DNA of 64,000 nt from a virus. The stretch is from positions 45,601 to 109,600 of the IMG/VR virus record IMGVR_UViG_3300042465_007464. The stretch is one strand, 5' to 3'. The notes beneath the pieces are model-generated. The model did no database searches and had not been told where the DNA came from. It saw only the letters and a program-made list of their open reading frames with translations. How positions within the stretch are numbered: position 1 is the first letter of the stretch; each line of letters begins with the position of its first letter. Position numbers and translations under genes: made by a program. This document shows positions 2,613 through 64,000 of the stretch, in pieces.

Positions 2613-3350
2613 TTATTCTCCTAATGCTCTTACGCGTTCCGATATTTTGACTAATCGTTCTGATATTGTTGATAATGCTTTTTTAGTTCGTGCTCCATAT
2701 GAAGATGCAGCTACACCAGATTCTGTTTTTAATCTTGCGTTATGTTTTACTAGTTCATCAATTTCTTGAAGTTTTTTAGCAATTTCTTGAATGGTGCGAT
2801 TCACTTTTTTATCCGGCGATACGTCTTTATCTGCCGTTGCAAATGACCGATAACCTTCAATCAATTCCTCATATTTACGTTCCATAACATCTTCTACTTT
2901 CAAAGCAGATATTTGTTTGCGAACTCCATGTTGTGGTAAATTTCCTATGCGAGTTGTGTTGTCTTCAATATTGTTCGTACCTTCACCATCCGGATAATAT
3001 TTTACCGGAAACTCTTGATCCGATTGCCACCAATATGATGCATCTGGCGAAAAGGGAAACTTATCATTGAAAATTTCTTCATCTGACTCAGGCGCTTGAT
3101 GTCCCGTTGTTTTCCAATCAAATGTCGGTTTAACATTTATAGATTCGTAACGTGCTTCTTTACCTCGCCATTTTCCTGGTTTAGCAAATGCAGCCGGCGT
3201 ATTGAATCCAGCAATGGCACCCGTTACATTTTGTTCGTCAATTTCTTCTTCATCGCAAACACACTTATCCATAGGACGATCACATGCATCGCAATATGAA
3301 TCTTCTATTTCATGGAATCGTTCTTTCATTTCACGTAATATTGACTTCAT
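2613..3350 (-). CDS. Hypothetical head-associated protein
   Basis: 245-aa ORF coupled to the protease gene. Confidence 0.6.
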   Translation of the reverse strand: MKSILREMKERFHEIEDSYCDACDRPMDKCVCDEEEIDEQNVTGAIAGFNTPAAFAKPGKWRGKEARYESINVKPTFDWKTTGHQAPESDEEIFNDKFPFSPDASYWWQSDQEFPVKYYPDGEGTNNIEDNTTRIGNLPQHGVRKQISALKVEDVMERKYEELIEGYRSFATADKDVSPDKKVNRTIQEIAKKLQEIDELVKHNARLKTESGVAASSYGARTKKALSTISERLVKISERVRALGE

Positions 3351-4198
3351 TACTTCAACTCTTTCAATTCGCGAACTAAATCAAAGTAACGTAGTAAATT
3401 TAATACGTGCGATTCTTTGATAGTTTTCATAGATTCTACATTGCATAACATTTCCGACAATTTAGTTACTTTGATTTGTGTAGCAGGATCAGTTATAGTT
3501 TTTGCTTGTGTGGCTAAATCTTTTTTGATTTGTGGTATTATAGTTTCAATGTATTCACGCAATGCAGTTGTATCATTAACGTGAGTAATGTATTTATTTA
3601 ATAGACGTTTTTGTGATTCATCTAATACTGAATATTTTTCATTGAATTTATCAACAATAATTTTATATGTTAATAAACGTATTTCTTTGGGTTGTGATTC
3701 AAATGATTCTAATACCGGGTCTTTTTTCGGTGTAGCACGCTCCGTTACAATGCCATGGTCTATAATTACATTTTTACATTCCATTAATTGTTTTGGATTT
3801 GCTGATTCAGCATATTCAAACAACATGTTGATTGATGCTAATACTTTGTAATTAGTAATATGCATCTTTGCCATATCTGTAAAAACGAATTTTTCAGAAA
3901 TCTCTTTTACTAGATTGTATCTTTGACGTTTCAGTACGCTTTGATTTAATTTATCATACGCAGATTTAACCGTACGTATGTAATCTAATGCTTGTGCTTC
4001 GCTTCGGAATTGTTCTTTAACTAATGCGTTATAGAGTTGCAATTCTTTTGATAACTCTGTATTTCGTCCAAAATATTTTTTGATTATATCTATTGTAACA
4101 GATTTGTTTGACGACAACGTTTCTGAAGTTAATTTGCGTACCAACATTTCAAATAGAATGCCGGTATTTTTATACTTCGAGTGTTTCAATTTCTTCAT
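3350..4198 (-). CDS. Hypothetical protein (head cluster)
   Basis: 282-aa ORF, MKKLKHSKYKNTGILFE N-terminus, between portal and protease. Confidence 0.65.
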   Translation of the reverse strand: MKKLKHSKYKNTGILFEMLVRKLTSETLSSNKSVTIDIIKKYFGRNTELSKELQLYNALVKEQFRSEAQALDYIRTVKSAYDKLNQSVLKRQRYNLVKEISEKFVFTDMAKMHITNYKVLASINMLFEYAESANPKQLMECKNVIIDHGIVTERATPKKDPVLESFESQPKEIRLLTYKIIVDKFNEKYSVLDESQKRLLNKYITHVNDTTALREYIETIIPQIKKDLATQAKTITDPATQIKVTKLSEMLCNVESMKTIKESHVLNLLRYFDLVRELKELK

Positions 4199-54484: not shown

Positions 54485-54524
54485 GGAATCCTTTTTTATA
54501 ATAAATATGCCATGCCAGTATAGT

Positions 54525-54836
54525 GCCTAAGACTTCTAGGGTGACAGGGGTTACTAGGGTGGCTAGGGTGACAGGAGCGCTCCTAGGACTTCTAGGGTGG
54601 TACAGAGTGGGTATGGCTCAGCCATATACAATATAGAAGCAAGGTTGTCCCAAAAAAATCTCCCCGTGCAAGGAAAACATATATAACCACTCCATCCAGA
54701 CCAGGGGGTCTACACCCCCTTAACGAAACCCTCCCCCACCCCCTGGTTTTGGGGGGGCTAACGGGGGTCAAAGCAAGGGGGGTCACCCATGAAACGAGGG
54801 GGGCATTTACACCCCCCATCACTACCCCTTAGGGCT
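54525..54836. other. GC-rich non-coding region with CTAGGGTG repeats and G/C homopolymer tracts
   Basis: ctagggtg x4; G5-G7 runs at 54751-54803; C5-C6 runs. Confidence 0.7.
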
Positions 54837-54850
54837 TATGCTTGATAATG

Positions 54851-55069
54851 CTATGCGGTCTCCACTGTCTCTAACAGGTCCTTAACGGATTGCAATGCTA
54901 CCTTCGCACCATACTGGATAGCCATTTGCATTAGGATGATGTCCATGCTGCCTTGGTTTGCTAGGGCAAATGCTTGCAATGCCTCTAGGCTCTCTGGTGT
55001 TGCTACGAAGCCTCTGTCTAGGCCTTTCAACTCTGCTGCTACAAATTCTTTTACGTCTACTGCTTTCAT
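54851..55069 (-). CDS. Early hypothetical protein
   Basis: Own promoter and AAGAGAGA start motif. Confidence 0.65.
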   Translation of the reverse strand: MKAVDVKEFVAAELKGLDRGFVATPESLEALQAFALANQGSMDIILMQMAIQYGAKVALQSVKDLLETVETA

Positions 55070-55135
55070 TGTCTCTCTTTTTAATTTATATAAATATAAT
55101 GAATTAATCGGTGCGTGTCAAGCCCTTTGTGTATA

Positions 55136-55369
55136 TTATGCTTCTTGATTGATTTGTTGAAGTACTTCGGCTGCTTCTACATTATCCGGAAGCGTGTTGT
55201 CCATACCAATTTTCAATTCATGCATCAACTCATATACTGCTGAATAAGATGCGCGACAACTCTTAGTGAATGCGTGGTCTGCGCCGAAGTCGCGAGTTGC
55301 CTCTTTTAATGTTAACCATAACCGCGCCTCTTGTTTTTGGATCCCTTGGATCATTGCTGCTTTTGTCAT
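55136..55369 (-). CDS. Early hypothetical protein
   Basis: 77 aa; AAGAGAGAT-ATG. Confidence 0.65.
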   Translation of the reverse strand: MTKAAMIQGIQKQEARLWLTLKEATRDFGADHAFTKSCRASYSAVYELMHELKIGMDNTLPDNVEAAEVLQQINQEA

Positions 55370-55392
55370 ATCTCTCTTTTTATATTAGGTTA

Positions 55393-55524
55393 TTACTTAC
55401 TCTTAATAATTGCATCTAATTGTTGTTTCAATTGGTCGATGTCTTTCTTAGTTAATTTAGTGATTTTCAGGTTAGCTGCTGCTGCTTTGAAATCGAAAAA
55501 AGCTTTTGGATCAATTTGTTTCAT
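55393..55524 (-). CDS. Early small protein (43 aa)
   Basis: Manual translation MKQIDPKAFFDFKAAAANLKITKL...; AAGAGAGAAC-ATG. Confidence 0.6.
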   Translation of the reverse strand: MKQIDPKAFFDFKAAAANLKITKLTKKDIDQLKQQLDAIIKSK

Positions 55525-55644
55525 GTTCTCTCTTTTTTTAAATTAATGCTTAGGGCCTTTCCCTAATTGCTATACATAAAGATAAGAATAATCGCAATAC
55601 AAACCTAATCTTTTTGCAACTTTTTTTAACTTTTTTTACAGTAG

Positions 55645-55670
55645 AAAACCGACACCATCGCTGATGCCGG
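55645..55670 (-). terminator. GNRA-loop terminator after the AAA gene
   Basis: CCGGCAUCA-GCGA-UGGUGUCGG-UUUU. Confidence 0.75.
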
Positions 55671-55695
55671 ATCCTTATTTGAGAGATATGTTCGC

Positions 55696-56646
55696 TTATT
55701 CTGCGGCGATGATTTGTTCTGCTACCATCTCCTCTACATTGTCAAAGCCCATTGCACATATTCTTGCCGCTTTGATGAAGCTTCTAAGGTTGATGTCAAC
55801 TCCTCCAAACTTAGCATCCAAGCTTTTCATTACATCCAATGCTTGACGCTTAGCCGCTACCGGTATGGTTGGCTCCATAGACTCAAGCAATTGCTCCATG
55901 CGTTGGAACATTTGCGTGGTGTTCATTGTTATGTCTGCTACAAAGCTACGGCTTCGGATTGCTGCATCCAATTTGCTTTGGCTGATGTTGCTGACAAAGA
56001 TTATTTTGCCGGTAAACTCAAAGTGTGCTGGGATCGGTTCACCAAACTCATCTTTAAGGGGCTTGGTAGAGATATAAGATATCTTGCGAGTGTCATAGCT
56101 ATCCAAAGCCGCTTTGAGGATGTTAACCGCATCGTCGTCTTTGAATACAGAGTCACAGTCATCCAACACTACTATCTTGTCGGAGTTTTGGTACAAGGTA
56201 ATAAACAAGCCGGCTGCGGTAGCTTTGCCTTTGAAGTGCTCAAACTCGTAAGACTCTCGCAATCCCATCGCCTTAAGTGTCTCCTTAACCAAGTGCGTCT
56301 TACCTACACCTGCCATACCCGTGATAACCAAAGAGGGTTGGATCCCACGTCCTACCATCTTAGTAAGGCGCTCCAAGTTACCAAACATTACTTGTGGATC
56401 TCTGCTATCCAATACGGAAAGGAAAGACATTTTGCTTGGAGCTGCCGGTGCCATTGTTACACCTGCTTGGTCCGCTGCTACTCGCGTTACTCGGCCGTTG
56501 CCATTAACCATTAGCACTTCGCGGTTCTTCTCTGCGTTCAATAGCTGAACGTGACGGATTAGATCCTTTGTTGCAAACTCTCCGGTTTTGATGTTCTTCG
56601 CCATCAATTTTCCTTTTACTCTTACTGGTTCAAATACATTTAACAT
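55696..56646 (-). CDS. AAA+ family ATPase
   Basis: GMAGVGKT Walker A; VVLDDCD Walker B; NILKAALD; AIRSRS. Confidence 0.85.
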   Translation of the reverse strand: MLNVFEPVRVKGKLMAKNIKTGEFATKDLIRHVQLLNAEKNREVLMVNGNGRVTRVAADQAGVTMAPAAPSKMSFLSVLDSRDPQVMFGNLERLTKMVGRGIQPSLVITGMAGVGKTHLVKETLKAMGLRESYEFEHFKGKATAAGLFITLYQNSDKIVVLDDCDSVFKDDDAVNILKAALDSYDTRKISYISTKPLKDEFGEPIPAHFEFTGKIIFVSNISQSKLDAAIRSRSFVADITMNTTQMFQRMEQLLESMEPTIPVAAKRQALDVMKSLDAKFGGVDINLRSFIKAARICAMGFDNVEEMVAEQIIAAE

Positions 56647-56719
56647 ATCTCTTATTTTTTAATTATAATATAAATTTAATGAAATTATCCGTGCGTGTCA
56701 AGCCCTTTGGCAACTTTTT

Positions 56720-56848
56720 TTAAACTTTTTTCATGTCGTGGAAAACTAGGATTCCTGCTGGGATCAACCCTAATAGACCTAAGTCATTACCAAATGCTAC
56801 TAGTACCAATCCGATCCCTAATGCTAATGCTGTCAATGTTGTTCTCAT
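56720..56848 (-). CDS. Early small membrane peptide (42 aa)
   Basis: Manual translation MRTTLTALALGIGLVLVAFGNDLGLLGLIPAGILVFHDMKKV; own promoter. Confidence 0.6.
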   Translation of the reverse strand: MRTTLTALALGIGLVLVAFGNDLGLLGLIPAGILVFHDMKKV

Positions 56849-56930
56849 ATATCTCTCTTTTTAATTTATATAAAGATAAGGATATTATCCGTGCGTGTCA
56901 AGCTTTTTTGAAACTTTGTTTAAACTTTTT

Positions 56931-57095
56931 TTATCCGAAGAATCCACCCGCAGTCAGGATCCAAATTAAGATTGCAGTGTCAATTAAACCCATAAACAAG
57001 TTATGTCGTCCCTCGCGAGGCTTACCGTGCAAGAAGGATACTAACAACAATTGGATCCCTAATAAGGTTAATAAGATAATTTGTGGTGTTCCCAT
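56931..57095 (-). CDS. Early small membrane protein
   Basis: Start MGTPQIILL at AAAGAGAT-ATG; two hydrophobic helices. Confidence 0.6.
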   Translation of the reverse strand: MGTPQIILLTLLGIQLLLVSFLHGKPREGRHNLFMGLIDTAILIWILTAGGFFG

Positions 57096-57174
57096 ATCTC
57101 TTTGTTTTAGATTGTTTCTCACGTCCGCATGGGCCAACATTTCTGCTGGCCCGGGACTATGTTGAGAGATATGT

Positions 57175-57549
57175 TTACTCTGTTAATGTTGCCTCATATT
57201 GTTCATCGCTGTCATCAACAATTTCAAAGCATCTGTCTAAGGCATTTTGGATGGCATCAAAGATGTTGTCACTCTCGACGTCGACATTTACCAACCTTAC
57301 TGTGTTGTGATAATCCATTTCAAACTCAGCTGATGACAAAGCAACAACGTCATCATTGTCCATGTTATTGATTGCGGATTCAATCACATCACCGATTGCA
57401 TCAAACATTGATTGCGTCATGCGCAACTCTGTCTTTGTCACTACCTCAGGATCCAAGCCTTGGATAAGTGCAATCACATTGTCAATTGATACTACTGAAG
57501 TCAACGCCTTTGCTGCTTCTAACTGTGCTACTAATTCTTCTTTTCTCAT
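57175..57549 (-). CDS. Early acidic hypothetical protein
   Basis: 124 aa; own promoter. Confidence 0.65.
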   Translation of the reverse strand: MRKEELVAQLEAAKALTSVVSIDNVIALIQGLDPEVVTKTELRMTQSMFDAIGDVIESAINNMDNDDVVALSSAEFEMDYHNTVRLVNVDVESDNIFDAIQNALDRCFEIVDDSDEQYEATLTE

Positions 57550-57633
57550 CTCTCTTATTTTTTAATTATAATATAAATTTAATGAATTAATCGGTGCGTG
57601 TCAACCGTTTTGACAACTTTTTTTAAACTTTTT

Positions 57634-57840
57634 TTACAGGCCGGAAAACTCCCCATCAACAAACAATAATGCTTCTCCGGAGCCTAATCCATCCACGCAT
57701 ACATTAAAGTATCCGTCATTGGCATCCATAATGTTGTCCTGGTCTAGGATCTCGGTAGCTACTCGTTTGCTGTCCATCAACTTCATGAAGTCTGATGCGT
57801 TGAGGCTACTTGCTGCTTTGATAATTTGATTTCGTGTCAT
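57634..57840 (-). CDS. Early hypothetical protein
   Basis: 68 aa; own promoter. Confidence 0.6.
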   Translation of the reverse strand: MTRNQIIKAASSLNASDFMKLMDSKRVATEILDQDNIMDANDGYFNVCVDGLGSGEALLFVDGEFSGL

Positions 57841-57924
57841 ATCTCTTATTTTTTAATTATAATATAAATTTAATGAATTAAATGATGCGTGTCAAGCTTT
57901 TTTGAAACTTTTTTGAAACTTTTT

Positions 57925-58011
57925 TTAATTAAACAATTCAACATAAATTATTGCGTCAATCGCCAAAGTTGCTTGGCATACAATCATCTGGATTTTTTTT
58001 ATCTCTTTCAT
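57925..58011 (-). CDS. Early micro-peptide (28 aa)
   Basis: MKEIKKIQMIVCQATLAIDAIIYVELFN; own promoter and AAGAGAT-ATG. Confidence 0.45.
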   Translation of the reverse strand: MKEIKKIQMIVCQATLAIDAIIYVELFN

Positions 58012-58089
58012 ATCTCTTAATTTTATAATATAAAGATAAGCAAAATAACCATGCGTGTCAACCGTTTCGGCAACTTTGTTTGAAAAAAG

Positions 58090-58830
58090 TTACAGGTACT
58101 GAGCCAATAACTCAATACCCGGTAAACTTGCCAATGCCGTCTCTGCCTGTCGAACTAATTGTCTTGCACGTTCATTCGTCACATTCATCTCCTCAGCAAT
58201 TTGATCCATGCATTGTGCATACTCTCGTCCGATCCCGTAGAATCTCTCCAATGCTTCGCGTTGCTTTGGTTTAAGCATACTCATAGCACGTTGCAAATCG
58301 AATTGCATATCTTGCACGTCACGGCGTGATACGGTGCTATCCGCAGCCAAGTAACGATCCGCATAGGTTTCTTTGTTCTCGTCGTCACCTACCGGAGTGG
58401 ATATGCTTTTGGTGCTATACTCCTCAGTAGCCGTACGGTGGCTTGGGATCCTTACTGTGCGGGACATATCATTCAATGCCTTTTGCAACTCGGCACGGAT
58501 ATACCATACCGCAAAGGTAATGAACTTAACGCCTTTGGTTGGATCGTAACGTTCAGCGGCTTCAAACAAACCTACATTACCAAACCCAATGAGATCCTCC
58601 AATTCCAAACCCATTCCCTGATACTGTCGTGCTACTTGGATAACGAATCGCAAATTGCTTTCCACCAACTCATTGATTGCACGTCGGTCTCCTTGCTGTG
58701 CGCGTTCTCCTAATACGATCTCTTGTTCTCGAGTCAATGTGCCTGCCTTGCGCACTTCTTGCATGTATCTTACTGTAGACTCTGCTGTGGCTACTACTGC
58801 GCCGGTTGTGATGAATTTTCTTTTTGACAT
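58090..58830 (-). CDS. RNA polymerase sigma70-family factor (RpoD/RpoS-like)
   Basis: NLRFVIQVARQY, EDLIGFGNVGLFEAAERYDP..G.KFITFAVWYIR, region 4 ERARQL. Confidence 0.92.
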   Translation of the reverse strand: MSKRKFITTGAVVATAESTVRYMQEVRKAGTLTREQEIVLGERAQQGDRRAINELVESNLRFVIQVARQYQGMGLELEDLIGFGNVGLFEAAERYDPTKGVKFITFAVWYIRAELQKALNDMSRTVRIPSHRTATEEYSTKSISTPVGDDENKETYADRYLAADSTVSRRDVQDMQFDLQRAMSMLKPKQREALERFYGIGREYAQCMDQIAEEMNVTNERARQLVRQAETALASLPGIELLAQYL

Positions 58831-58872
58831 ATAACTCTTTTTTAATTAATAAAACGTAACCAATGCAACCGA

Positions 58873-59070
58873 CTACTTGCCGGTTGCTAAGAATTTAAAA
58901 CTTACTCTTACTGGAGCGGTTTGCTTTGCGACATACTCTGCCTTTCTTTTACCCAACTCAATTGCTTGTGCTACGGTTGTGGTATTACCTCCGGTTCTTG
59001 CGTCTTTAGACATTTGTGCCATTACCGCTCCTTGTCTTTCAAATCCTGAATTTCTTTTTCCTTTTGCCAT
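58873..59070 (-). CDS. Early small basic protein
   Basis: 65 aa; own promoter. Confidence 0.6.
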   Translation of the reverse strand: MAKGKRNSGFERQGAVMAQMSKDARTGGNTTTVAQAIELGKRKAEYVAKQTAPVRVSFKFLATGK

Positions 59071-59169
59071 ATCTCTTATCTTTTTAATTATAATATAAAT
59101 TTAATGAATTAAACCATGCGTGTCAAGCATTTTTGAAACTTTTTTACAACGGATCCAATACTATTGGGT

Positions 59170-59391
59170 TCACATTTCTAATGAGTCAATCACTTGGTTC
59201 CATGCATCGGTTTGCTTTGCTTCTCCCTCTGCATTTAGAATGAATCGAAAATTAAAATCTGCATTAGGATTGATTACATAATGTTTGCCATTGTCAGCTT
59301 GAATTAAAAGCATTTCATGATTATACATTTCAGTAACGGTACCAAATAGAACTTCGTTAACATTTAATAAATTTGTGAATTTTACTCTCAT
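59170..59391 (-). CDS. Early hypothetical protein
   Basis: 73 aa; own promoter. Confidence 0.6.
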   Translation of the reverse strand: MRVKFTNLLNVNEVLFGTVTEMYNHEMLLIQADNGKHYVINPNADFNFRFILNAEGEAKQTDAWNQVIDSLEM

Positions 59392-59474
59392 ATCTCTCTT
59401 TTTAAATTAATACTTAAATATAATAAAAAAAGGGATGCGTGTCAAGCATCCCGGTAACTTTTTTCAAACTTTTT

Positions 59475-59732
59475 TTAATAATGCGGATTAACAAAGTCGA
59501 TCCCAATAGCTTTGTAATACACAGCCAATCCTTCAACCAACCTTTCTTCCAAGCCATGCTCAAGATGTTTTTCAATTTCAGCCACCATTACCTCATTGTC
59601 ATCGCAAACCTCTTCTGCAACATGGATCCCTTCGAATTCCAATTCACCATTCTCACCACCCGAGTAGTTCACTTCCAATTCAACCATCATTCCATTCAAT
59701 TGAACTGTCAATCCATAAATTACACCTTCCAT
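59475..59732 (-). CDS. Early acidic hypothetical protein
   Basis: 85 aa. Confidence 0.6.
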   Translation of the reverse strand: MEGVIYGLTVQLNGMMVELEVNYSGGENGELEFEGIHVAEEVCDDNEVMVAEIEKHLEHGLEERLVEGLAVYYKAIGIDFVNPHY

Positions 59733-59753
59733 ATATTTGTTTTTAATTTGTTA

Positions 59754-59948
59754 CTACATTTCGCCTTCAACAACGTCAGTTACTGTAAAATAAGCTACCC
59801 GTTCTATAAAATCAACAACGTCTTCCGGCTCAAAGCCTTCAACATTAATAAGATCCTCAGCAATTGCCTTAATTGCTTGTTCCAATTTTTCCTGTGCCAT
59901 AGTGGGAGTTAAACCCAACATTCTGTCAAATGCTTCCATTGATACCAT
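59754..59948 (-). CDS. Early acidic hypothetical protein
   Basis: 64 aa; own promoter. Confidence 0.6.
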   Translation of the reverse strand: MVSMEAFDRMLGLTPTMAQEKLEQAIKAIAEDLINVEGFEPEDVVDFIERVAYFTVTDVVEGEM

Positions 59949-60032
59949 AATCTCTCTTTTTAAATTAATACTTAAAGATAATAAAAATAACCGTGCGTGT
60001 CAAGCATTTTGCTAAAAAAGTTTACGGAAAGT

Positions 60033-60305
60033 TTATTCCTCTTCGTCCCATTCATCACATTCGTCGCCATATTCAAAATCCAACTCGTCGATTATGTCTT
60101 CAAATGTGGCACACAATGCTTCGGCTTCTGCGTCTGTGATAGTGGATCCCGCCTGTTCCATGTTCTCGCCATCCAGCCAACGTTCAAATACTTCGGTTAA
60201 GTCGGATTCCGCTAAGCGTGCATCCATAATCTCTAACGCGTCGTCGTTAGCTACATCGGTGAAGTCGTAAATTCTTCCGTAAAGGTCTTGCAATTTTTCT
60301 CTCAT
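60033..60305 (-). CDS. Early highly acidic protein (possible DNA mimic)
   Basis: 90 aa, very D/E-rich; own promoter. Confidence 0.55.
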   Translation of the reverse strand: MREKLQDLYGRIYDFTDVANDDALEIMDARLAESDLTEVFERWLDGENMEQAGSTITDAEAEALCATFEDIIDELDFEYGDECDEWDEEE

Positions 60306-60391
60306 ATCTCTCTTTTTAAATTATACTTAAAAATAATAAAAATAACCGTGCGTGTCAAGCATTTTGACAACTTTTTTCGAACTTTTTTTAA

Positions 60392-60547
60392 TTAAAATTC
60401 AACAAAGTCTATTGCCATTTCTCCGATACCCTTTCCGTCACGGGTAATCTCATAATTGGGATCCATACCGGAAATCATGATGTGGGCGATAAGGTCTCCT
60501 ATCGTCGGAAACTCTGCTGTGTAATAATCACAATTTAAACTATACAT
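60392..60547 (-). CDS. Early small protein (51 aa)
   Basis: Manual translation MYSLNCDYYTAEFPTIGDLIAHIMISGMDPNYEITRDGKGIGEMAIDFVEF. Confidence 0.65.
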   Translation of the reverse strand: MYSLNCDYYTAEFPTIGDLIAHIMISGMDPNYEITRDGKGIGEMAIDFVEF

Positions 60548-60606
60548 ATCTCTCTTTTTAAATTAATACTTAAAGATAAGGTTTATAAAGTTAGGATCCT
60601 AATTTT

Positions 60607-61005
60607 TTAGGAGAAAAGTTTCGAAAATGTTTCTGCTCGTTTTAAGCATTCAAATTTGCCGGAATCATTCTTTCCCCATATTTCAGCTTTGCCGGAATGA
60701 CTACATTTGGGAATTACTGTGAATAAAACTTCGTTCTCGTTACATATGCGGAAATCGTCATACAACGGTCCTTGACCCGGACAATTATTCTTAAAGAACA
60801 CATATGTCTCTAGGATGTCAATCTCCGGATTTGCTGCAATAAACTTTTTTACCTTAGGGAATAACACATTTGCTTTACGCTCCAATGATGAATCTTTGCA
60901 AAACCAATCATAAAAGTTAAAACAATCATTTTGATCTCCTTCGCTGTCAATTATTCTTCCTGACGCAAATGCATTCAACTGTTCTGCTAAACTTACTTTT
61001 TTCAT
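60607..61005 (-). CDS. Early hypothetical protein
   Basis: 132 aa; FYDWFCKD, YVFFKNNCP..GPLYDDFRIC. Confidence 0.65.
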   Translation of the reverse strand: MKKVSLAEQLNAFASGRIIDSEGDQNDCFNFYDWFCKDSSLERKANVLFPKVKKFIAANPEIDILETYVFFKNNCPGQGPLYDDFRICNENEVLFTVIPKCSHSGKAEIWGKNDSGKFECLKRAETFSKLFS

Positions 61006-61085
61006 AACTCTCTCAATTTATAACATGTTGTGGGAATATTCCCTTCTTATTAATACTTAAAGATAAGGATAATAAAGTTAGGATC

Positions 61086-61280
61086 CTAATTTATTTGCAA
61101 CTTTTTTTGCAATCTTTTCAACTTTGTTTTAAGCTTATTACGCTCCAACTTGCGAAAGTAATTGCCGTGGTTATACGGAGTGCATCCGTCGGGTTGAGCA
61201 AATGCACTAACCCATTTTGTGGTATCCGTCTTTAGGAATTCCAATCTTGCTTCAATAGCTTTAATTTGTTCTTGTATCAT
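61086..61280 (-). CDS. Early hypothetical protein
   Basis: 64 aa; own promoter. Confidence 0.55.
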   Translation of the reverse strand: MIQEQIKAIEARLEFLKTDTTKWVSAFAQPDGCTPYNHGNYFRKLERNKLKTKLKRLQKKLQIN

Positions 61281-61526
61281 ATCTCCCTTTTAATTTTAAT
61301 AAAGATAAGTATAATAATGATAGGATCCTAATTTTTTGGCAACTTTGTTTGAACTTTTTTCAACTTGAAAAAACAGCCCGTCATATAAAGATAAGTATAA
61401 TAATGATAGGATCCTAATCTTTTCGAAACTTTTTTCAAACAAAGTTAAGGGAATTATAACCGACTATTTCTATTATGGCAGACTCGCCTCGGTTTATTTT
61501 TTTAACTTCCCTTTAACTTTGTTTTG

Positions 61527-61628
61527 AAGTCGGGACAGGATTTGAACCTGCATGGTGGAGACTATTATTCGATCTTATACACTCCACCTTATCTTCCTTC
61601 GACAGCGTTACCATTCCGCCTCCCGACT
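61527..61628 (-). ncRNA. tRNA-like RNA (Leu-type acceptor/D/T arms, non-canonical anticodon region, long extra arm)
   Basis: AGTCGGG/CCCGACT acceptor; GGCGGAATGGTAACGC D-arm; GCAGG-TTCAAAT-CCTGT T-arm; GGTGGAG/CTCCACC extra stem; no CCA. Confidence 0.7.
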
Positions 61629-61640
61629 CGAGGTTGCTGG

Positions 61641-62021
61641 CTAATTAAAGCCAACAAACCCTTTTTCCAATTTTATATCTAAATCCTCCACCATTTCCTT
61701 TAAACGGTAATAAGGAGCGGCTTCCAATTCATCTTCGAATATGTCACATATTCTTTCAATTGTGTAACCAAATCCATATCCGCAAATAGTAACGGCTTTC
61801 TGAATGGCAATCATTTCGTCGGATGCACATTCCCAATCCAATTCAGACAATTCGCCATCTTCTTCATCCAACTCAGCTTCTGCGGCATCCAATGCATCCA
61901 TCCACAGACTATAAATTGCATTCTTTACTATCTCAGCCACTGCATCATTGTGGTCATACATTTCGCGGCTCCAAGGTTTAACAATTTGGGTCCCGTACTC
62001 TACTTTTGGTTCTTTTTTCAT
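61641..62021 (-). CDS. Early acidic hypothetical protein
   Basis: 126 aa; own promoter. Confidence 0.65.
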   Translation of the reverse strand: MKKEPKVEYGTQIVKPWSREMYDHNDAVAEIVKNAIYSLWMDALDAAEAELDEEDGELSELDWECASDEMIAIQKAVTICGYGFGYTIERICDIFEDELEAAPYYRLKEMVEDLDIKLEKGFVGFN

Positions 62022-62092
62022 ATCTCTTATTTTTTTATATACTTAAAGATAAGTAAAAAAGAGATGCGTGTCAAGCATCTCCCTAACTTTTT

Positions 62093-62347
62093 TTAAACTT
62101 TTTTTGCATCCGTAACAAGCTTGTTACGGAGCTTGTCTACTAACTTTTTAAAATTAGTAACTGCATCCCAATTCCCGGTGTCTATGGGAGCTGTTAACCC
62201 GAAATACCCGTCGGGAGCGTAATGCATATTAAGCAACTGCATACGCGGACTTGCTTTGCGCAATGCTACTTGTTGTGCTGCTACACGTGCAGCTACTTGC
62301 TTAAGCTCTACATCTGTAAGCAATGTGACATTAAAACTTTCTTGCAT
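62093..62347 (-). CDS. Early hypothetical protein
   Basis: 84 aa; own promoter. Confidence 0.6.
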   Translation of the reverse strand: MQESFNVTLLTDVELKQVAARVAAQQVALRKASPRMQLLNMHYAPDGYFGLTAPIDTGNWDAVTNFKKLVDKLRNKLVTDAKKV

Positions 62348-62437
62348 ATCTCTATTTTTAAATTATACTTAAATATAATAATAAAAAGCACGCGTGTCAA
62401 GCAAAATGCAAACTTTTTTTAACTTTTTTTTTACAGC

Positions 62438-62675
62438 AAAAAACAGCGCTGCTAGGTGAGAGATCCTAACAACGCTGTTGGGCACCTGGAAAGAGAGAAA
62501 CCCTACCTAACTTGCCGATCCGCCGACCATCGTAGCTTGTTGCTGACCCTGAGGTGTGCGAAGCTTGTTGTGGTCGGACCCCGTCGGCATTTGAATCGAT
62601 CCACGTATCATTAACCTGTCGCCAGATCCTTTGGTCGCCTAGCATACGGCATTTGGTTGGATCAACCTTCCTACA
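62438..62675 (-). ncRNA. Candidate structured small RNA (~235 nt)
   Basis: TTGGA...TATTATAT promoter at 62679-62709; 13-bp terminator stem at 62444-62477 plus U-tract; ~80-nt imperfect hairpin at 62513-62589; no credible ORF. Confidence 0.65.
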
Positions 62676-62724
62676 TCTATATAATAAGAAATAATACGCA
62701 CATATCCAACCTTTACGCGCACTT

Positions 62725-63150
62725 CGTACGTGTCGCTATAGCTAGGTCATCAAAGCGTACGTGCATATAGTGCAGATTTCATCTAAAACCTGAAAGCAAT
62801 CTAAAGGTCAATTCGCCTAAAAATCAACTAAAAATAGCCGGGGAGCGGAGGATTCTTCTAAAAATCGTCTAAAAATAGCAGCATCGGACTAAAAATCAAC
62901 TAAAAATAGGACTCGCTATAGCTAGCGATTTCACCAGGATCGCGTCATACGTGTGTATAGTGCAGGTCATGATGGTCTCGCATAAGCCGCAAGATCACAT
63001 ACGACACGACGTATCTGGCGTAGGGAGGAGAGGATGCATCTAAAAATCAACTAAAAATAACGTCACCCGTTTCTGTTTATAATAAGGAATTCCGTCCAAA
63101 AATCAAACCAAATTCATCTAAAAGTCCCCTAAAAATCGTCTAAAAATAAC
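62725..63150. repeat. Iteron-like CTAAAAAT repeats (paired, 11-bp period) in a non-coding region
   Basis: ctaaaaatcaactaaaaata x3 and ctaaaaatcgtctaaaaata x2; tcgctatagctag x2; tatagtgcag x2. Confidence 0.8.
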
Positions 63151-63571
63151 ATGGGGCATACAGTGCGTATACGTGCTTCCAGGCCTTAACGGATATCAAG
63201 TATCCAGTGCATGTGCAATAAAGACGCTAAGGCGCTAGGAAATGGTGTATAGGGAGAGCGATATATATATCTGTACTACCACCCACGTTCTATTCACTCT
63301 TCCGCCTGGATCGCATCATCCCATGACTCAAACTTTTAACGCATTCTTTCGGGTTGACGCCTCTCCTGGATAAAGGACAAGACACTGGGATGCTGTCACC
63401 ATGACCCCTAACTAATTCATACAATGACGTGCTTCGTACATATACTTGCATTACTTACATTACTTCGAGTATTACTTGTCGTCTTCGTGTTCTTTGCTAG
63501 GTTCTTGGGCATAGATCCGTAACGTACTGTGTTGGAACTTTAGTTAGGGCAATGCGGTGTCTGCTTGGATA

Positions 63572-63736
63572 TCAATTCAATATTTTAAATCTCAACCAAA
63601 TTCTAAACTTTGCCAATAACAAAAACAAAGGCATATCCGTATAAGAAGTACATAAGGTTACGTCGTTGCAAGTACCACTTAATCCTTCCTTAAAGGAATA
63701 GCCTTCGAAATCGAATGTGTTCCATTTAATTTTCAT
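63572..63736 (-). CDS. Small hypothetical protein (54 aa)
   Basis: Manual translation MKIKWNTFDFEGYSFKEGLSG... Confidence 0.45.
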   Translation of the reverse strand: MKIKWNTFDFEGYSFKEGLSGTCNDVTLCTSYTDMPLFLLLAKFRIWLRFKILN

Positions 63737-63749
63737 ATCATTTTTTTAG

Positions 63750-63861
63750 TAGTCAGGACAAGATTCGAACTTGCACGTGGACCTTGTGTGTATCTCAACT
63801 ATACTGCGGTTATTCCACTCCGTTTAACTATTCAGTGCGTTTACCATTCCGCCACCTGACT
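63750..63861 (-). ncRNA. tRNA-like RNA with an expanded, non-canonical central region
   Basis: AGTCAGG/CCTGACT acceptor; TGGCGGAATGGTAAACGC D-arm; GCAAG-TTCGAAT-CTTGT T-arm; GTGGA/TCCAC extra stem; no CCA. Confidence 0.7.
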
Positions 63862-63864
63862 ATT

Positions 63865-64000
63865 TTATTCAAATCTTTTGTCTAGTCCTATTAAACTAAC
63901 AGCTGCGATAATAGGTATTGTAGTAATGTACCCAGTAAGAATCGTTACAGCAAAAAGGTATGGTGCAGTTTCCCATGCTTGTTTATTTTTTGTAACCCAT
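63865..64000 (-). CDS. Partial membrane protein (3' end)
   Basis: ...WETAPYLFAVTILTGYITTIPIIAAVSLIGLDKRFE-stop. Confidence 0.45.
   Translation of the reverse strand, partial: WVTKNKQAWETAPYLFAVTILTGYITTIPIIAAVSLIGLDKRFE

Follow-up and report, generated by a model that had tools for sequence, protein, structure and literature searches.

Conserved anti-start elements beside stop codons as probable cis-acting masks of translation starts in early phage mRNAs

Phage T4 hides the starts of e, soc, 49 and I-TevI in hairpins of read-through transcripts and releases them via a late promoter inside the hairpin, and in MS2 starts are masked over long range. Long-range pairings that mask start regions are likewise described for Qbeta (PMC2978339). 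Among bacterial mRNAs, icaR of Staphylococcus aureus carries in its 3' untranslated region (3'UTR) the motif UCCCCUG; by pairing with the Shine-Dalgarno region of the mRNA that carries it, this motif blocks the initiation complex and gives rise to a substrate of RNase III (PMC3868564). A 14-bp interaction connects the 5'- and 3'-UTRs of the Bacillus subtilis hbs mRNA (PMC5737220). Also in B. subtilis, an 8-nt sequence complementary to the ribosome-binding site (RBS) and lying hundreds of nucleotides downstream can pair with it, block initiation and speed decay in vivo, and long-range anti-Shine-Dalgarno-like sequences repress expression and are depleted from genes (PMC12697547). Here we analyze an anti-start element, AACAUAUCUCUCA in mRNA sense, that stands at the stop codons of two early genes in the final 64 kb (the window) of the 109.6-kb IMG/VR record IMGVR_UViG_3300042465_007464 (estimated completeness ~65%), one encoding an AAA-type ATPase (site 1) and the other a 124-aa protein (site 2). 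Both copies are likely to be cis-acting RNA elements that mask a translation start region.

Site 1 resembles icaR in that a short, pyrimidine-rich 3'UTR motif forms the complement of its own mRNA's initiation region, across the whole coding sequence; this complementarity extends over 11 bp in the window and over 8-14 bp in 25 orthologs. The target is not a Shine-Dalgarno sequence as in icaR, since the phage helix covers AGAGAU-AUG-NN, that is positions -6 to +5 including the AUG, where there is no Shine-Dalgarno site. Moreover, the phage 3'UTR is merely ~50 nt long and its motif lies 0-7 nt from the stop codon, whereas the icaR motif lies deep in a long 3'UTR, and the molecule considered here is a phage early mRNA known from sequence and predicted folds. 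With hbs, whose stability is tied to initiation, site 1 shares a long-range duplex of similar length joining the ends of a monocistronic mRNA, but the hbs duplex modulates RNase Y cleavage in the leader and leaves the start codon uncovered. The anti-Shine-Dalgarno-like sequences of B. subtilis are selected against, while the phage element is positively conserved at a fixed place, and anti-start words show no genome-wide depletion in this phage.

Site 2 is closer to the devices of Qbeta and T4, in which a downstream start is locked in a stem with upstream sequence and freed under a defined condition, and its phage belongs to a T4-like lineage; the start downstream of site 2 falls in a predicted stem with the end of the upstream open reading frame. 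It differs from both in that the upstream arm adjoins the stop codon, the stem encloses a separate conserved GNRA hairpin and the same portable module serves different downstream genes, and from T4 in that no late promoter was seen inside the hairpin. A description of such a stop-adjacent anti-start element was not found in the literature searched, and Rfam 15 holds no family that matches either module at E-values up to 1 (positions 54500-64000).

Two identical 13-mers and their predicted partners

Both exact 13-mers reported by the original prediction were recovered: the + strand reads TGAGAGATATGTT at 55680-55692 and at 57163-57175, and all coordinates and descriptions given there hold. These are the only exact copies in the full 109.6-kb record. 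The AAA and 124-aa genes lie on the minus strand, and the mRNA therefore reads AACAUAUCUCUCA at both sites. Element 1 (55680..55692, minus strand) is found in the 3'UTR of the AAA gene, 3 nt past its stop codon (55696-55698), and element 2 (57163..57175, minus strand) overlaps the UAA stop codon (57175-57177) of the 124-aa gene by 1 nt. On the 3' side of each 13-mer is a GNRA-capped 9-bp hairpin, with a GCGA loop at site 1 (55649-55670) and a GAAA loop at site 2 (57131-57152). The 13-mer matches the AAA start over 11 nt (56642-56652) and the next start over 9 nt (57093-57101), and a third AUCUCUCA occurs in a non-coding RNA at 62.4 kb (62457-62464).

The single-genome statistics for the 13-mers are borderline and no more than suggestive. 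Exact 13-mer pairs are common in the window, with 1075 direct pairs, most of which are promoter repeats. Short anti-start words of 6 to 8 nt occur on the sense strand about as often as expected (ATCTCT, 10 times against 11.4 expected), and the only over-represented anti-start word is the 9-mer ATATCTCTC (2 seen against 0.2 expected; 2 of 200 shuffles reach 2). The strand count of TGAGAGAT that the original prediction had proposed as a check found three copies on the + strand and none on the minus strand, numbers too small to decide the matter alone. It is conservation in relatives, and not these statistics, by which the anti-start feature is recognized as real. That the two copies agree at all 13 positions is in part a coincidence. 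Constraint acts on the core CAUAUCUCU(CA); the 5' AA belongs to the UAA stop codon in the case of site 2 and reflects, at site 1, the pairing with AUG-UU. For the comparisons, loci of the AAA gene or the 124-aa gene with their flanks were taken from IMG/VR relatives (labelled L004 etc.), and the start/anti-start helix was tested by RNAduplex energies, permutation and partition-function folding.

The AAA-type ATPase gene (55696..56646, minus strand) encodes 316 aa, belongs to phrog_1250, which has no assigned function, and shows weak AAA and STAND matches in Pfam and PHROGs searches. Its own early promoter and leader module, AAAAAAGTTTAAAAAAAGTT..TTGACACGCA..TAAATTTA.., was located at 56655..56730 (minus strand) by consensus scans only, and its start region AGAGAU-AUG-UU (56642..56652, minus strand) is the 11-nt partner of element 1. 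Downstream of element 1, the 9-bp hairpin and its tail UUUUCUACUG (55639..55670, minus strand) have the features of an intrinsic, rho-independent terminator, a GC-rich stem followed by a U-tract (tail TTTTCTACTG; UUUUC directly after the hairpin), and the hairpin shows covariation in relatives.

Conservation of the element in the AAA 3'UTR, a check that had been suggested, was borne out: the anti-start sequence stands just past the stop codon in 25 of the 35 orthologs analyzed, down to ~50% protein identity. Among these 25 carriers, the element and its own start form a duplex of 8-14 bp, and pairing begins a median of 3 nt from the stop codon (range -1 to 7). The helix span takes in the AUG in 22 of them, and G.U pairs occur in the helix of seven; the helices of L017, L018 and L013 are bulged. 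Changes in the start are mirrored in the element. The start AUGUU faces the anti-start AACAU in the window and in L004-L006, AUGAU faces AUCAU in L007, L009, L013, L017 and L018, and AUGCA faces UGCAU in L026; further combinations are GAGAGAGUUAUGA with UCAUAUCUCUCUC (L069), GAUAUAUG with CGUAUAUC, including one G.U pair (L019), and the divergent start AAAGAUAUAGAU with AUCUAUAUCUUU (L074). Own-start duplexes have a mean energy of -12.0 kcal/mol compared to -10.4 kcal/mol for permuted pairings (permutation p 5e-5, not corrected for phylogeny), and in 20 of 24 loci site 1 pairs more strongly with its own start than with that of the next gene. Folding of full mRNAs, likewise proposed beforehand (~1020 nt, partition function), gave a probability of 0.52-0.999 that the AUG is paired with the element in 14 of 14 carriers folded (0.999 in the window), compared to at most 0.014 in three orthologs without the element.

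Specificity was assessed with 420 distinct gene instances from these loci, in each of which the gene start was paired with the 24 nt from the stop codon onward. The median duplex energy was -3.4 kcal/mol, and the 21 instances at or below -12 kcal/mol include 16 AAA orthologs and 3 orthologs of the 124-aa gene. A third gene family provided one instance of a stop-adjacent element: in L026 a gene for 235 aa (2763-3490, + strand; start MNKIYVTTGAVA) carries UAAAUCAUAUCUUUU, which is complementary to its own start at -12.9 kcal/mol.

Further observations concern the surroundings of the AAA gene. In L007 (4949-5190, + strand) the AAA gene is followed by a site-2-type hairpin, an apparent tRNA gene (called by eye from its GGTTCGAATCC T-arm), a second anti-start (AUCAUAUCUCUCA) and a terminator, and in L074 the anti-start seems to adjoin a tRNA gene directly. 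Downstream of the AAA terminator in the window, a small hairpin, UUAGGG-AAAGG-CCCUAA, is located in the leader of a 43-aa gene (55550-55566, minus strand), and similar 'ttagggcctttccctaa' leaders recur in relatives, e.g. L033, L007 and L013.

At site 2, the upstream cistron is the 124-aa early gene (57175..57549, minus strand), for whose protein no function was found in Pfam and PHROGs. The gene downstream (56931..57095, minus strand) encodes a small hydrophobic protein of 54 aa (phrog_5479) and is the candidate for masking. Consensus scans found no promoter of its own, and between 57175 and 57095 the same kind of scan, the only one applied, found neither an early-promoter motif nor a terminator-like site. 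In the minimum-energy fold (z -4.3), element 2 and the downstream start region AGAGAUAUG (57093..57101, minus strand) form a 9-bp basal stem, and in the fold of the bicistronic transcript of the window the downstream AUG is paired with a probability of 0.92. The stem encloses the conserved two-tier hairpin GUCC-[GGGCCAGCA-GAAA-UGUUGGCCC]-GGAC (57123..57157, minus strand), which is not a terminator because it has no U-tract.

The site-2 12-mer ACAUAUCUCUCA was invariant in 9 of the 10 relatives first examined, and the module was later found in about 25 loci. Downstream of the 124-aa orthologs the 12-mer is near-invariant together with the hairpin GUCC-GGGYCAGCA-GNRA-UGUUGGCCC-GGACGU; the flanking proteins are merely 43-76% identical among relatives, and the next gene differs between phages. 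A covariance model of the module scores highly once in each relative, in every case on the strand of the genes, and at lower score it also finds the site-1 modules, which indicates that the two modules are homologous; chimeric forms of both occur in L007, L064 and L065. The hairpin alignment has 98% of its cells paired and many G.U pairs, and both sides vary at 12 of the 13 pairs; these counts are somewhat biased because the alignment was fitted to the model. Since G.U pairs are abundant, the hairpin forms only on the mRNA strand. In folds of bicistronic transcripts, the partner of element 2 is the downstream start rather than the start of its own gene, the probability that the AUG is paired being 0.64-0.995 in 7 of 8 loci, while in L034, which has no downstream gene, the element pairs with its own start instead. 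Furthermore, L042 and L009, which share the same downstream ortholog, differ by a compensatory C/G change in start and anti-start (AGAGACAUGA/UCAUGUCUCU versus AGAGAUAUG/CAUAUCUCU).

Early gene array and the 62.4-kb non-coding RNA

The phage is probably T4-like, with a Flavobacterium-type host, that is, a bacterium of the Bacteroidota. Its nearest named phages are the Flavobacterium 'immuto' myoviruses, which are distant: they account, together with one Microcystis phage, for the few cultured matches of a 518-aa protein from the late-gene region of the window. No close cultured relative was found, as the 2.4-kb region used as nucleotide query gave zero matches among cultured phage genomes. Complete relatives have genomes of 158-160 kb with terminal repeats.

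The genes between 55 and 62.4 kb, which lie on the minus strand, make up an array of small early genes. A near-identical promoter-leader module, AAAAAGTTTAAAAAAAGTT..GCTTGACACGCA..TAnnTTTA..AAAAAGAGAGAU-AUG, is found in eleven of them, and for this reason the shared early start signature (A)AGAGAU-AUG is regarded as real. The early starts are without a Shine-Dalgarno site. AGAGATATG is found at 12 minus-strand and two plus-strand positions, the latter two being the anti-start elements. Within the early promoters, the arms around a conserved TTGACAC box are inverted repeats whose sequence varies between promoter copies (GGGATGC..GCATCCC; GGGAGATGC..GCATCTCT; CGGT..ACCG; at ~59432-59455 and ~62060-62085 on the minus strand and in other early promoters), a pattern that suggests a hairpin or an operator inside the early promoters. 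Two stretches on the minus strand, 61527-61628 and 63750-63861, match the Rfam tRNA model over 102 and 112 nt with 35.6 and 41.1 bits, above the gathering score, and ARAGORN calls no tRNA in either; they could be tRNA-like elements or else tRNA genes that contain insertions or introns.

Upstream of the early array is a non-coding unit (62438-62710, minus strand), the 62.4-kb RNA, for which no Rfam match was obtained. Co-linear homologs are present in two relatives (L120:1216-1576, minus strand of the locus; L121:1501-1830, + strand). These homologs contain a full internal anti-start, AACAUAUCUCUCAA or AACAUGUCUCUCAA, plus a conserved GGGUUUCUCUCUCUUAUUCCCGGG at the 3' end, while the copy in the window is without an internal anti-start and has AUCUCUCA in its terminator loop (62457-62464). 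The suggestion of the original prediction that this RNA belongs to the same circuit as the two 13-mers thus gains some support, which comes from the full internal anti-start in the homologs of the two relatives.

Alternative explanations and points of doubt

The 13-mer complements the consensus early start of about 12 or more genes, and some of these starts pair as well as the element's own. Antisense RNAs derived from the 3'UTR were another of the three possibilities raised by the original prediction. A stable RNA of this origin, composed of anti-start and terminator hairpin and acting either alone or jointly with the 62.4-kb RNA, might silence early AGAGAUAUG starts globally and in trans; the terminator hairpin of site 1 would stabilize such a 3' fragment, and the internal AACAUAUCUCUCAA or AACAUGUCUCUCAA of the 62.4-kb RNA homologs would fit the same role. 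We regard this as unlikely, given that the +4/+5 changes and the repeat length track the gene's own start, that the element of L074 matches its own unusual start only, and that site 2 has no terminator and an element that follows the start of the adjacent downstream gene. A trans-acting RNA, for which, moreover, no processing site is known, would not require so strict a position beside the stop codon. Alternatively, the repeats could act in the DNA, either as inverted repeats for recombination or inversion or as a protein-binding site, and be kept alike by gene conversion. Inverted repeats of 11-13 bp do flank the AAA gene, and a near-invariant 12-mer as at site 2 is expected of a sequence-specific binding site. 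Nevertheless, the AAA gene is inverted in no relative and has its promoter upstream in 35 of 35, G.U pairs occur in 7 of the 25 start/anti-start helices and abound in the adjoining hairpin, which forms on the mRNA strand only, and the bulged helices of L017, L018 and L013 suit an RNA better than the core site of a recombinase, all of which makes a DNA-level function very improbable.

Copying of a pyrimidine-rich spacer together with the hairpin it precedes, as parts of one terminator module, would account for the evident homology of modules 1 and 2 (both contain ACAUAUCUCUCAA(C/A)AUAG, both are found by one covariance model, and chimeras exist in L007, L064 and L065) and agrees with the weak single-genome statistics. 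Chance or hitch-hiking of this kind leaves unexplained the element-specific changes that match each gene's start, the retention through 50% protein divergence and the near-confinement of strong scorers to two gene families among the 420 gene instances, and we give it very little credence. The original prediction had itself named a case that would speak against it, namely that the 13-mers are the starts of real + strand genes antisense to the early genes, each consisting of a ribosome-binding motif and an ATG. Read on that strand each 13-mer is indeed GAGAGAU-AUG, the start of a 52- or 66-aa frame, but the frames opened by the mirrored ATG in the various orthologs range from 3 to 132 aa and lie in differing registers, and a consensus scan found no early-type promoter upstream on the + strand; this case was rejected and seems to us hardly credible.

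Several observations weigh against masking in cis. At site 1 the compensation is incomplete, with +4/+5 mismatches in L011, L014, L022, L042, L064 and L065, and the +4/+5 association is by itself of modest statistical strength, AUGAU being the majority state. The tree shows about ten losses of the element (e.g. L008, L010, L015/L057, L049, L060, L028 and L070/L073), and the element, absent from about ten orthologs, is dispensable. Its start partner is not unique, since most early starts share AGAGAUAUG, and action in trans is therefore conceivable. At site 2, a G-to-A change in the downstream start of L030, the closest relative, abolishes the predicted pairing, and the near-invariance of the module may also reflect protein binding or recent horizontal spread. 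Finally, the thermodynamic folds ignore ribosomes and co-transcriptional kinetics, and transcription start sites were assumed on the basis of consensus scans.

Proposed mechanism and its significance

The complementarity, its conservation, the partly compensatory changes, the strand-specific hairpin and a predicted pairing that is thermodynamically dominant are present in these phages, and from them we infer a repression of initiation, its relief by a terminating ribosome and the biological purpose of the device. Most likely, the device would keep translation off except when a ribosome is just coming to the end of the upstream gene. Both elements lie 0-7 nt from a stop codon and just ahead of a stable GNRA hairpin.

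At site 2, element 2 and the next start AGAGAUAUG (57093-57101) would form the basal 9-bp stem of a long hairpin that hides the start of the small protein. A ribosome terminating at the adjacent UAA is proposed to melt this stem, and the small gene would then be translated only in step with the upstream gene, which amounts to translational coupling by unmasking, here of small and often hydrophobic proteins. The masking of the next start with termination-coupled unmasking, one of three possibilities raised by the original prediction, fits this site in that the element tracks whichever gene follows and in the compensatory change of L042; the coupling step is our extrapolation from this pattern.

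For site 1, the pairing of the mRNA ends that had been raised in the same place finds support in the conserved, partly compensatory complementarity to the own start and in full-length folds that bring the two ends together. The AAA gene is the last before the terminator, and its element would pair over ~950 nt with its own start (-6 to +5, AUG included), closing the finished AAA mRNA on itself. Ribosomes would load during synthesis of the mRNA and might re-load whenever the duplex is opened by a ribosome at termination; when traffic ceases, the mRNA would lock, and the duplex may also mark it for decay. The expected outcome is a self-limited, time-limited expression of the AAA gene.

Ribosomes of Bacteroidia ignore Shine-Dalgarno sites, and mRNA structure tunes their initiation (PMC6847099). 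As the ribosomes of the probable Bacteroidota host would share this property, occluding the start would be a natural control lever. A block of initiation is plausible in view of this non-Shine-Dalgarno initiation (PMC6847099) and of the repression by distal anti-RBS sequences seen elsewhere in vivo (PMC12697547, PMC3868564). A more far-reaching version, in which a termination-gated closed loop (the stop codon opposite its own start, self-sustaining and then locking) and the anti-start non-coding RNA upstream of the early array together constitute an RNA circuit for early-gene shut-off, is put forward tentatively and strikes us as unlikely. If the closed loop were true, each terminating ribosome would unmask its own start and hand itself over, and the phage would possess a built-in timer for early genes in a host without Shine-Dalgarno recognition, with an irreversible lock once traffic lapses.

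The finding thus concerns a portable module, an anti-start followed by a GNRA hairpin and set against a stop codon, that is conserved across a group of uncultured T4-like phages. To our knowledge, bacterial mRNAs whose 5' and 3' ends pair with each other have come to light in very few cases (icaR, hbs), and we know of no description of such pairing for phage mRNAs or for Bacteroidota. Since the element is a short, defined sequence for which compensatory mutants can easily be designed, the idea is directly testable in reporters of Flavobacterium johnsoniae. The module appears to do two jobs, closing one mRNA on its own start and coupling a small hydrophobic protein to the gene upstream. Because the host ribosomes probably ignore Shine-Dalgarno sites, accessibility of the start would be the main control point, and these early genes may offer a clean natural setting in which to study how initiation is gated by structure and termination.

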